A DNA stretch of 26,969 bases from a virus: UHGV virus genome UHGV-2016197; one strand, given 5' to 3'. The position numbers were made by a program, and so were the translations under genes. The notes beneath the pieces were generated by a model. The model was not told where the DNA came from and searched no databases. It worked only from the letters and a program-made list of their open reading frames with translations. This document shows positions 21,541-23,745 of this stretch, one piece after another (positions within the stretch are counted from its first letter, which is position 1; every line of letters starts with the position of its first letter).

Positions 21541-22008
21541 TTATTTCAGGCATTGCGTCCTGATGTATTCCTGCAGGTAGTTAACCTGCGCGGTTATCTT
21601 GTCGATTCCACTTCGTAGACGGTAATAATTGAGTTCAGCATCTGCTGTAAGTCTTGGGCTTTCTCCATCGCCCATGCTGCTGGCTCCGGTCGTTGACTTT
21701 GCACAGGTGGCGGCGACTTGCAGCCGCTTACGGCCAGCAATGACATCGCTATGCAGACGCTCAATGGTTTCTTTCGCATCAGCCAGTTCTCCGGTGTATT
21801 TGGCATCCAGTGCAGCGACATCACGCTGGCGGGTCTGCATGTCTTTAATGGTGGCGGTCGCCAGGAGGAGTTTCTCAGTGGCCTTATCGCGCTGGTCTCT
21901 GTAAGTGATGGCGTTGTCGCGGTAGTGGTTCACGAAGAAAGCCAGTGCGCCGATTAACGCCAGCACCAGCAACTGCAGCCAGTAACGCTTAACCAGTGCG
22001 CTAATCAT
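21541..22008 (-). CDS. Rz: Rz, inner-membrane spanin subunit
   Basis: 155 aa; N-terminal TM segment then [17 protein letters not shown] ... [23 protein letters not shown], closely matching lambda Rz from memory; ATG at 22008 overlaps the lysozyme stop (ATGA). Confidence 0.9.
21594..21779 (-). CDS. Rz1: Rz1, outer-membrane lipoprotein spanin subunit, embedded in the +1 frame of Rz
   Basis: From ATG 21779: [20 protein letters not shown] with a lipobox (VSGC) followed by a Pro-rich mature part; lies entirely inside Rz. Confidence 0.8.
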
Positions 22009-22454
22009 GACAGGAACAGAGCTCGCTCTGCCTTGCGGCGATTCGTGAGCCCCGGCATCACCTTTCCGCCTGATTTATTCCAGCGCAGAAATTCATCTGC
22101 CGCGCCTTTTATATCGCCAGCATTCAGCTTTTTCAGCAGTGTAGATGTGGAAAGAGCACGCGACCCAACGTTGTAAGCGAACGACACCAGTGCGTCGAAC
22201 TGGCCTTGTGTCAGCTTCACCCTGACAACTTTCAGCACGTCATTCTCATAACCAACAAGCCCTGTTTTCAGAAGCCTGTCAGCGGTTTGCTGGTCGATAG
22301 TCATACCGCGCTTTACTGGCTTTCCGTCAACCGGATGGGTCCAGCCATAGCCGATGGTCCACGGCGCATCTCCCGTTCCGGGGTCTGGGTAAGCAGTCAG
22401 CCGACAACCTTCAAATTTTTTTATCAGAGCAATTCCGTCAGGACTGGTTTGCAT
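22005..22454 (-). CDS. Endolysin, T4/P22 gp19-type lysozyme (GH24)
   Basis: From ATG 22454 (GGGAG Shine-Dalgarno 6 nt upstream) 149 aa: [24 protein letters not shown] ... ERALFLS, matching the P22 gp19 family from memory. The ORF-track start at 22526 is TTG and was trimmed. Confidence 0.85.
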
Positions 22455-22791
22455 CGTCAACTCCCGCCTTTTTTGCTGCAAGTTTTTTAATAAGATTGCC
22501 GATCGAATCGGTGCCGATGTATCCAATAAAGACGCTGGCTATGTAGGCGAGGTTGCTGCTCAGGCCGATAAAGTCCAGAAGGTCACGAACGAACCAGGCA
22601 ATCATCGCGCACATCAGCGCATCAATTAGCGTTTTTGTTACCGCGCCGCCGTTATAGCGACCACGCAGATACGCCATGATAAAAGCCAGCATTGCACCAA
22701 TACCCTGCTCCTTGGCGGCAAGTAGCGCAGCGATGAAATCTTGTTTGTATGGCAATTTTTTCTCCCTACGCCTGGCACGCGAATTGACCAT
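22438..22791 (-). CDS. S: Class I holin, lambda S-like; start uncertain (ATG 22791 inside the HNH gene, or TTG 22755 just after the HNH stop)
   Basis: From [24 protein letters not shown]... to the end the protein is collinear with lambda S ([24 protein letters not shown]...) as recalled. AGGGAG then 6 nt then in-frame TTG at 22755. Confidence 0.85.
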
Positions 22792-23266
22792 GATATTTCC
22801 CCCTAAACTCTGAGATTACCAACTCAGCAAGTTCGAGATCATCGAAGTAACCCAACCAGATCTGCTTCTTATTTCTACTTCCGCAAACTCTCCATTTCCC
22901 ATTCTTAACATCAAGCCTGACGCCCTTTATGGGATTCTTTCCTCCGGATGGTTTGCGTCTGTTATATTGATTTTCTGATTTGGTCGATAATCTGAGGTTT
23001 TTAATGCCATTGTTTAATGGGTTTCTATCTAAATGATCCACGTCCATTTCTGGCATGCATCCATATACATACAACCAAGCCAGCCGATGCTCTTTATAGA
23101 TTTTCCCATCTATACGTATTTGCCTGTAACCAGATCCATTAATCGTTCCAGCTCTTGAGCCAACTTTAATTCTGCGATTGCTGGATTTAACCCAAGTAAA
23201 AACCCCTGAAACAGGCTCATAGTGCATAAGGCTTTTCAGGACTTGCTGAGTGATTACCATCTTCAT
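22766..23266 (-). CDS. HNH homing endonuclease with AP2-like C-terminal domain
   Basis: 166 aa; HNH motif region [10 protein letters not shown]...[25 protein letters not shown] and C-terminal [27 protein letters not shown]; ATG verified at 23266 with GAGGAGAGAG upstream. Confidence 0.8.
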
Positions 23267-23365
23267 AGTCTCTCTCCTCGCAATAGAAGCGGGAGCTGTG
23301 CGTTGTAGAGAAGCGCCTCACCCATTGCGTTTAAGGGGTAAGTGTTTAGCTGTATGGATGGTCGC

Positions 23366-23394
23366 GAATAAAAAAGCCCACGGCGCGGTGGGCA
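23366..23394 (-). terminator. Intrinsic terminator within the late leader
   Basis: Minus-strand RNA GCCCAC-CGCGCC-GUGGGC followed by UUUUUUAUU. Confidence 0.55.
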
Positions 23395-23644
23395 ATAGAG
23401 GGTAGTGCGTTGAGCTTTTGCTCTTATGGTCCTGGTAGGTATTTGGTGTGTGGTGACCGGTGCTGTGTTTTCCGGCATGTAAATGAACTACCCGTCGTCG
23501 CCATGGTGAGCCTTTACCTCACCATCTAGCTGATAAGTTAGCGCATCAGCCTGCGCATTCACCACAACGATAATTGCACTGCGCCTGTTTCGGTTAGCGT
23601 AACGGGATTAACCGGTCACCCCAATGCAATTATCTGTTGTGCAG

Positions 23645-23678
23645 ATACAAAAAAGCCCCGAGCTATTAACTCAGGGCT
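23645..23678 (-). terminator. tR'-like terminator of the short late leader RNA
   Basis: Minus-strand RNA GCCCUGAG-UUAAUAG-CUCGGGGC then UUUUUUGUAUCUGCACAACAG; the U tract and following bases match the lambda tR' region as recalled. Confidence 0.7.
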
Positions 23679-23706
23679 TTATTTAACGAGTGCATTTATC
23701 CATCGT

Positions 23707-23745
23707 TGAGTCAAATTTACCCAACTTTATTCAAAAAGTCAATAT
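23707..23745 (-). promoter_or_regulatory. Late promoter pR' with qut-like region (target of Q antitermination)
   Basis: Minus strand TTGACT (23742-23737) - 17 bp - TAAATT (23719-23714) then TTGACTCAACGATGG, matching the lambda pR'/qut sequence from memory; about 40 bp downstream of the Q stop. Confidence 0.75.

Follow-up and report, generated by a model that had tools for sequence, protein, structure and literature searches.

The S gene of phage lambda is the textbook case of a gene that encodes both an effector and its inhibitor to set the time of lysis, with a dual start behind a hairpin that sequesters the Shine-Dalgarno (SD) sequence and is known as the sdi element. We analyzed a 26,969-nucleotide (nt) stretch of viral DNA, UHGV virus genome UHGV-2016197 (the window, meaning this whole stretch), in which a gene for an HNH/AP2 protein of the free-standing homing endonuclease type stands on the 5' end of a lambda S-family holin gene; all the relevant features are carried by the minus strand. 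In lambda, extra N-terminal positive charge makes S105 into the antiholin S107, and loss of S107 advances lysis by 5–10 min (PMC6116005).

Free-standing homing endonuclease genes are known from T4-type phages, with the seg and mob genes, the Aeh1 mobE gene, which splits its host gene nrdA ('genes-in-pieces'), and segG with its embedded gene 32 promoters (reviewed in PMC2988022). They are promoter-less cassettes that use the signals of their host, and essential host signals embedded in them favour their retention (PMC2988022). In the P22-like phage epsilon34, gene 31 joins the eaE N-terminus in frame to an HNH homing endonuclease (PMC2629481), and an N-terminal HNH domain followed by a C-terminal AP2 domain is a recognised homing endonuclease architecture (PMC10448857).

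For the window, we consider it likely that a free-standing, I-HmuI-like HNH/AP2 homing endonuclease gene has inserted in frame after codon 3 of a lambda-family holin gene, that it has captured the holin start and supplied a new SD and a TTG in its place, and that it would have spread by homing and altered the timing of lysis. The open reading frame (ORF) downstream belongs to the same holin family as lambda S, and uninterrupted alleles of the same gene begin with MKMP behind an SD-sequestering hairpin. Unlike in lambda, the hairpin, the SD and the Met1-Lys2-Met3 codons now head the HNH gene, whereas the holin body has a single non-ATG start behind a new SD; an S107-type antiholin therefore cannot come from the classical motif.

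Like the T4-type cassettes, this one is promoter-less and combines host expression signals, a hairpin that sequesters the ribosome-binding site, putative translational coupling and embedded essential signals, the holin initiation signals lying within it as the gene 32 promoters lie in segG; its presence also varies between near-identical genomes. Unlike them, it lies in frame inside a coding sequence, three codons in, where it borrows the start codons and re-supplies an SD and a start; its host gene is the lysis-timing gene of a temperate lambdoid phage, and its homing is putative. A homing endonuclease gene could thus enter a coding sequence without an intron or intein, and the retention strategy of the embedded essential signal would extend from T4 to temperate phages. 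The likeness to epsilon34 gene 31 is that in both cases an HNH ORF of a P22-like phage continues, in frame, from the N-terminal codons of a gene already resident there. That fusion, unlike the one in the window, lies in the early-left operon, in a non-essential gene, and belongs to a different HNH lineage; no re-supplied start for the downstream remnant is described there. In a literature search that covered subscription journals incompletely, no endonuclease gene was found described at the start of a holin gene. Apparently new, in that we did not find them described, are an HNH clade dedicated to the first codons of holins, the capture of the dual start and sdi, and a conserved weak codon standing in for the original start of the holin.

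The features of the window on which the comparison turns are, from the leader to the holin:

23367..23393, minus strand: GC-rich hairpin and T-run (GCCCACCGCGCCGTGGGCTTTTTTATT), the upstream-side end of the sequence common to insert-free alleles
23267..23366, minus strand: late leader 'type A' (100 nt), standing where the ES3-type empty allele has a different leader, of 107 nt
23274..23295, minus strand: sdi-like hairpin CUCCCGC-uucuauu-GCGAGGAG, with the SD GGAG (23277-23274) as its 3' arm, 7 nt before ATG1
23258..23266, minus strand: dual-start motif ATG AAG ATG (Met1-Lys2-Met3), identical to lambda S and now codons 1–3 of the HNH gene
22766..23266, minus strand: HNH/AP2 gene of the free-standing homing endonuclease type, 166 amino acids (aa), assigned from Pfam, PHROG and a structure model
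22753..23257, minus strand: 505-nt insert, made up of HNH codons 4–166, the stop, a 10-nt spacer containing an SD, and TTG
22789..22791, minus strand: alternative in-frame ATG inside the HNH ORF, 36 nt upstream of the TTG
22762..22767, minus strand: new SD AGGGAG for the holin, overlapping the HNH stop TAG (22768-22766)
22753..22755, minus strand: proposed holin start, a TTG where lambda S has Met3 (the S105 start)
22438..22755, minus strand: lambda-family class I S-type holin, 105 codons from the TTG, assigned from Pfam and PHROG 126

The first-pass annotation, made from the letters of the window, had proposed that the endonuclease gene lies precisely between the initiation region and the body of the holin gene, and had named an alignment with insert-free prophages as the way to define the junction. 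Matched filled and empty alleles bear this out and place the junction between codons 3 and 4 (ES3, 21AR0133, L036). Using megablast against 5,426 complete E. coli genomes, we found the HNH gene in none of them, and several genomes that match both flanks in two pieces with ~500 nt missing between. Two of them, E. coli ES3 and 21AR0133, match the window with 100% identity between the Q gene and the terminator ...GGGCTTTTTTATT (23367); past this terminator their sequence is unrelated to the window until position 22754, where 100% identity resumes at TGCCATACAAACAAG / TGCCATAC and reaches the end of the holin gene, so that the ES3 holin has 100% nt identity with that of the window from codon 4 on. 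The two empty alleles read GGAGGTGAGGCCT ATG AAA ATG CCA TAC AAA and encode a normal MKMP dual-start holin of 107 aa. Relative to this ES3-type allele, the window has also exchanged the entire 100-nt leader.

The second pair has the leader in common: in the empty IMG/VR contig L036, 109 of 109 leader positions are identical to the filled locus L030 through ATGAAGATG, after which L036 continues directly with CCC TAC AAA CAA GAC. The type A leader likewise precedes uninterrupted MKMPYKQDF holins in IMG/VR (L036, L040), and an unrelated holin in E. coli LR-28. The sequence gagagact ATG AAR ATG CC is uninterrupted in 40 IMG/VR contigs, in many of which it heads MKMPYKQDF holins. Filled and empty alleles thus differ by a 505-nt block (23257-22753) between holin codon 3 (ATG) and codon 4 (CCA), reading GTA ATC ... 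GCG TAG GGAGAAAAAA TTG, with an exact breakpoint made ambiguous by a 2–4 nt TG(CC) repeat. This is a presence/absence polymorphism at one precise site between near-identical genomes, seen in the window versus ES3/21AR0133 and in L036 versus L030. Filled and empty alleles with 100% identical flanks would allow the contributions of antiholin, start strength and coupling to lysis timing and fitness to be tested directly.

We then compared the HNH start with that of lambda S. The HNH ORF begins ...GCGAGGAGAGAGACT ATG AAG ATG GTA (ATG1, 23266-23264; AAG, 23263-23261; ATG3, 23260-23258) and lambda S begins GGGGGTAAGAC ATG AAG ATG CCA. The first-pass annotation had likened the MKM start to the dual-start region of lambda S; on exact alignment both the MKM and the SD similarity hold, and the likeness can be stated more closely, since the start module now heading the HNH gene is that of the holin itself, sdi-like hairpin included. 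Uninterrupted holin genes have initiation regions homologous to ATGAAGATG and the ~45 nt that precede the HNH ATG, and the same regions also head the unrelated 90-aa holin (MKMDERY...) of Salmonella phage UPF_BP1, at least three further IMG/VR holin families and another holin of E. coli LR-28. In single-sequence minimum-free-energy folds of 14 leaders, lambda included, the SD always lies in the 3' arm of a hairpin, 7–9 nt before the first ATG, with arm and loop sequences that vary by leader type; RNAalifold on 12 leaders gave no consensus structure, because the leader types do not align. In the window this hairpin (23295-23274, −10.5 kcal/mol) holds the SD in its 3' arm as upstream of an uninterrupted holin, but it stands ahead of the HNH ORF, which it now governs.

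That the likeness between the HNH start and lambda S is coincidental, the two genes being mere neighbours, has a negligible probability: although the motif is short (9 nt), the homology continues for ~45–100 nt upstream, within holin leaders, the 505-nt block is exactly what separates filled from empty alleles, and relatives of the HNH gene carry other holin-type heads, MRMP and MKRMP. We regard this explanation as refuted by the filled/empty comparisons and the 40 uninterrupted IMG/VR contigs. The start codons themselves belong to the leader: in L026 an HNH gene that is otherwise 99.8% identical starts with ATG AAA ATG GTA behind a third leader type, and since codon 2 varies there with the leader, the first three codons travel with the leader and not with the endonuclease. 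The 505-nt cassette is thus without a translation initiation region of its own, and the HNH gene is read from the holin's hairpin-sequestered SD and ATG-AAG-ATG. The dual-start motif has in this way been removed naturally from a holin and given to another gene, repeatedly, and the arrangement has been kept across diverged phages.

The module of hairpin, SD and ATG-AAR-ATG(-CC) is shared more widely, as it heads at least 4–5 unrelated holin families (82 aa; ~113–115 aa, MKMPN..W; 90 aa, MKMDERY; S-type) at loci L032-L071 (IMG/VR), L003:1190-1252 and L021:1210-1320. The first 3–4 codons of lambdoid holins therefore behave as a recombination joint that belongs to the leader.

At its other end, the HNH ORF closes with GCG TAG GGAGAAAAAA TTG CCA TAC AAA CAA GAT TTC (PYKQDF). 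As the first-pass annotation had read, the holin body resumes at PYKQDF directly after the HNH stop with an in-frame TTG behind AGGGAG: the SD is followed by six A's and the TTG (22755-22753), and its duplex energy with the anti-SD is −8.9 kcal/mol. In alignments the TTG falls on ATG3, in the empty alleles as in lambda, and thus on the S105 start. The window holin ORF itself lacks the dual start that the empty alleles have, reading ...GAG AAA AAA TTG with no ATG at that position. The cassette re-supplies an SD and a non-ATG start at the S105 position and leaves a reading frame for a complete S105-equivalent holin body. The ORF matches Pfam Phage_holin_3_1 (E 5.6e-30) and PHROG 126 'holin/anti-holin' and is followed directly by the endolysin and spanin genes of the late operon, as expected of a class I holin. 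Its intact frame and the wide occurrence of the filled allele in otherwise complete lysis cassettes suggest that it functions as a holin. An HNH–holin frameshift fusion was set aside, as there is no slippery site before the stop.

From this arrangement we propose that the holin would initiate at the weak TTG, partly by direct initiation on AGGGAG-N6-TTG, and that another part of its translation may come from re-initiation by ribosomes that terminate at the HNH stop 10 nt upstream; scanning and coupling models of such re-initiation are summarised in PMC2988022. The Lys2-bearing, S107-type antiholin would no longer be made, and holin output, hence the lysis clock, would follow from the TTG and from how it is coupled to translation of the HNH gene, with the ratio of two starts no longer in control. 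Less holin would be synthesised from a weak start codon that depends on HNH translation, which could compensate for the loss of the antiholin. Note that the holin's only initiation signals lie in the last 16 nt of the cassette, so that its imprecise deletion would inactivate lysis, which would favour retention.

The junction was then followed through the relatives of the HNH protein, found by a search of 5.8 billion proteins, others being found by exact-sequence look-ups. The protein search gave relatives at 99, 77, 70, 61, 59, 58 and 57% identity, and in every one with a fetched context the HNH gene lies between the Q gene or late leader and a holin gene, which is Phage_holin_3_1 in all but one (Phage_holin_3_3). 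HNH starts and junctions (stop, spacer, holin start, following Pro codon) read:

Window and L008: HNH MKMVIT; TAG GGAGAAAAAA TTG CCA
L010: HNH MKMNIA; TAG GGAGGAACAT TTG CCC
L012: HNH MRMPIT; TGA GGGGGATATT TTG CCC
L013: HNH MKRMPLS; TAA GGGGGCGATC GTG CCA
L014: HNH MTISQ, with an out-of-frame ATGAAACGCT remnant upstream; TAA GGAGGATATT TTG CCT
L016: HNH MKISQ; TAA GGAGGCATCC GTG CCC

The gap from stop to start is exactly 10 nt in six of six lineages, with the SD inside it and the start directly before Pro. The holin start codon is TTG in four lineages, GTG in two and ATG in none, and the SD energies, −8.9 kcal/mol in the window, range from −11.2 to −12.1 kcal/mol in the five other lineages. 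The HNH starts of L012 (MRMPIT) and L013 (MKRMPLS) keep the holin's Pro4. No relative found down to 57% identity has the HNH gene as an independent upstream gene with a normally started holin, the arrangement that the first-pass annotation had named as speaking against an insertion; all of them share the junction. As a control, a holin gene lies directly downstream in none of 80 loci with more distant HNH relatives (38–49% identity). Between lineages, synonymous sites are saturated (synonymous differences, pS, 0.73–0.99; nonsynonymous differences, pN, 0.15–0.33), and the ratio of nonsynonymous to synonymous rates (dN/dS) of the HNH gene is about 0.08 where computable. Together with the invariant HNH motif residues described below, this indicates that the protein has long been kept functional at one site. 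The HNH subclades follow the holin types, PYKQDF versus PEKDPGFW/PYKSDPG, as expected if each enzyme recognises the 5' sequence of its own holin. That TTG or GTG has been retained while synonymous sites became saturated would fit selection for a weak start; alternatively, the change from ATG to TTG may protect the filled allele from its own enzyme. In a metagenome scan for ATG revertants of the junction (GCGTAGGGAGRAAMAWNTGCC), the three true matches all carried TTG, and seven further matches were due to chance.

Other collections were less informative: in GenBank phages all HNH matches were below 60% identity, the closest phage proteins there being less than 50% identical, matches in IMG/VR had at most 49% identity, and the species-representative genome set held only one truncated copy. 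In L014 (660-690), which encodes the 58% relative, the HNH gene is not in frame with the first of the two former start ATGs (ATGAAACGCTATGACT), there being one extra base compared with the ATG AAA CGT ATG of L013; only the second ATG is used by the HNH gene, and the holin downstream is the Phage_holin_3_3 one. In L019 (499-999; P0008), the HNH gene is chimeric: its ~120 N-terminal residues, like the region upstream of them, differ from the window and belong to another HNH lineage, and identity to the window covers the last 44 residues, the stop-SD-TTG junction and the lysis genes, which indicates recombination between two endonuclease genes inside the ORF.

The holin could also be translated from the ATG at 22791-22789, which, as had been noted on first reading, is the sole in-frame ATG between the TTG and the preceding stop and lies 36 nt upstream, inside the HNH ORF. 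The product would be 117 aa long, with 12 additional residues read in an alternative frame of the HNH C-terminus, and would be made either alone or alongside the TTG product as a new basic antiholin; the second form would amount to a re-created dual start. We hold this to be unlikely. The frame is open, and the SD-like GGGGGA 6 nt upstream has an energy (−9.3 kcal/mol) similar to that of the TTG's SD; the ATG and its SD-like motif occur in four of the six lineages, and the added positive charge would fit the antiholin logic of lambda S107 (PMC6116005). Public records are inconsistent, the holin of filled alleles being annotated as 117 aa (upstream ATG) on 134 contigs and as 105 aa (TTG) on 23. 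Yet the ATG arises from the HNH codons CAT-GGT of a conserved KYHG motif, and ATG and SD-like motif together are by-products of the conserved HNH residues R-(G/E)-K-Y-H-G; the ATG is probably a by-product of the codons CAT-GGx. L013 and L016, where His is CAC, have neither the ATG nor the SD-like motif and still keep the stop-SD-GTG junction. The net charge of the 12-residue extension varies from about 0 to +5 across lineages, and a +5 N-terminus, if it headed the sole product, would by S107 logic be expected to block the N-out topology needed for hole formation. As a conserved holin start, the upstream ATG was set aside, being absent from part of the lineages. A lineage-specific, highly basic antiholin may be made from it, which would be the most interesting possibility at this locus. 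In any case, the choice between 117 and 105 aa matters for annotation, where the records disagree on the holin start.

We next turn to the endonuclease of the proposed insertion. The HNH ORF matches Pfam HNH_3 with E 8.6e-15 (54.5 bits versus a cut-off of 24.8) and PHROG 99 'HNH endonuclease' with E 4e-63; the match to Pfam AP2, at 25 bits, is below the cut-off of 33.3. An AlphaFold model (predicted local distance difference test, pLDDT, 85) has I-HmuI (1U3E) as its best Foldseek match in the PDB; this match spans the N-terminal 100 residues, with 27% identity over 102 columns and a probability of 1.00. The C-terminal three-strand sheet and helix of the model match the AP2 domains of AtERF1 and TEM1, with target-normalised TM-scores of 0.40–0.65 and Foldseek probabilities of 0.99–1.00 at E values of only 0.1–0.4. 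A sequence search of the PDB with the HNH protein found no chain. The HNH_3 catalytic domain has the conserved His/Asn motif residues, D77, H78, N86, N90, N99 and N102 being invariant among 11 relatives. I-HmuI, to which the protein is likened through the model match, is intron-encoded and has different DNA-binding modules; because I-HmuI is a nickase, the window enzyme may nick its target rather than make a double-strand break. The HK97 gp74, terminase-associated type of HNH protein was set aside, as Pfam family, size and position are all wrong; a gene of that type occurs separately, next to the terminase, in L030.

The exact HNH protein of the window is recorded as 'MULTISPECIES HNH endonuclease [Enterobacteriaceae]' on 97 contigs, and the identical protein occurs in at least eight different lambdoid backgrounds. 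Ten of its contexts were read: they comprise at least three Q families and five terminase types, and the HNH gene is always directly 5' of the holin gene. Across loci the cassette is 99.8–100% identical, the leader 63–100%, the holin 73–100% and the lysozyme 70–100%. On the right side, all filled alleles are identical through TTGCCATACAAACAAGA, and in several loci identity breaks 17–24 nt into the holin; on the left, the shared tract amounts to ~0 nt (L026), ~45 nt (L022, L025, L027 and the IS66-disrupted L006) or the whole 100-nt leader. These data point to horizontal spread with variable co-converted flanks, which fits homing without being proof of it: short, variable co-converted flanks and empty alleles with identical flanks are the pattern of endonuclease-driven homing, and recombination at the conserved joint of the initiation region could give a similar picture. 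In the homing model, a related phage in the same cell would have its uninterrupted ATG-AAR-ATG-CCN-TAC-AAA region nicked or cut by the enzyme, and the cassette would be copied in during repair, with variable flank lengths.

Several observations weigh against an inserted homing gene with a TTG-started holin behind it. Both gene callers and the majority of database records place the holin start at the upstream ATG, which has a usable SD-like motif, and the absence of ATG over six lineages is weak statistical evidence because they share ancestry. The filled allele is rare, being found in 0 of the 5,426 complete E. coli genomes, and about 157 contigs of this holin carry the cassette versus at least 1000 with the uninterrupted 107-aa form; its spread is therefore inefficient or costly. 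Finally, the ATGAARATGCC joint is common to several unrelated holin families, so that ordinary homologous recombination there could move the cassette without the endonuclease.

The last points lead to the explanation that the HNH gene is a passively carried moron or module, moved by such recombination at the joint, with no self-spreading role for the endonuclease, which may be inactive on this site or may attack competing phage or host DNA late in infection. Since gagagactATGAARATGCC heads at least four unrelated holin families, exchange does happen here without the HNH gene; two prophages of one genome share a 3-kb identical block from Q to lysozyme, far larger than the cassette; the filled allele is rare; and bioinformatics alone cannot show active homing, according to the authors of PMC10448857. 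We judge a passive module possible but rather improbable, as the cassette is 99.8–100% identical where its flanks diverge within 17–24 nt on the right and 0–100 nt on the left, which resembles short, variable co-conversion tracts; the gene has stayed at this one site under strong purifying selection, with its catalytic residues invariant, while synonymous divergence became saturated; and the HNH subclades track the holin types.

The two prophages just mentioned, L030 and L031, lie on one chromosome (GCA_902505335.1) and have different terminases. Their 100% identical block of ~3 kb holds Q, a second HNH_3 gene (169 aa), the window-type HNH gene, the holin and the lysozyme, and their other flanks are 65–75% identical, a pattern that would fit gene conversion from one co-resident prophage to the other. 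Two endonuclease genes can thus have room in the leader that separates Q from the holin. In an Enterobacter metagenome-assembled genome (L006:3001-3090), the same HNH gene, with an MKM start and 96% identity over 28 codons, has an IS66-family element after codon 28.

A bolder reading of the same data, which we hold as doubtful, is that of a homing endonuclease clade specialised on the first codons of lambdoid holins that has rewired the lysis clock: the HNH protein would be made from the structure-regulated dual start, the holin only via coupled re-initiation at the weak TTG or GTG, and, in some lineages including the window, a new antiholin, extended at its N-terminus by a highly basic stretch of 12 residues, from the ATG overprinted on the C-terminal HNH codons. 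If this were true, lysis timing would depend on the expression of a selfish element, and loss of the element would kill lysis.

The neighbouring genes place the insertion in a late lysis operon:

24408-23785, minus strand: Q antiterminator ORF, upstream of the late promoter
about 23650..23720, minus strand: late promoter, PR'-type, with a Qut-like site
22005..22454, minus strand: endolysin (lysozyme), start overlapping the holin end; Pfam Phage_lysozyme E 6.4e-48
22008-21541, minus strand: Rz/Rz1 spanin genes downstream of the lysozyme, from the annotation of homologous loci

In HK97, HK620 and mEp phages, stretches that carry the annotation 'promoter / similar to lambda Qut site' are 95–100% identical to the PR'/Qut-like region. 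Between this region and the HNH ORF lie two terminator-like hairpins followed by the 100-nt leader, and the Q-dependent late transcript has the HNH gene as its first ORF. Further downstream, the structural genes are 93–95% identical to those of the P22-like phages CUS-3, Huey and Sf101, and the host of the insert is a P22-like (CUS-3/Sf101-type) E. coli prophage. Scans of the leader for tRNA genes and Rfam families found no gene accounting for the region. A 47-nt stretch of the late leader (23491-23537, minus strand; ...TTATCAGCTAGATGGTGAGGTAAAGGCTCACCATGGCGACGACGGG...) matches small-subunit ribosomal RNA covariance models (RF02542) with 38 bits and E 1e-8, which falls short of the gathering score; this 16S-like fragment, between PR' and the lysis genes, is also 100% identical in insert-free E. 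coli alleles.

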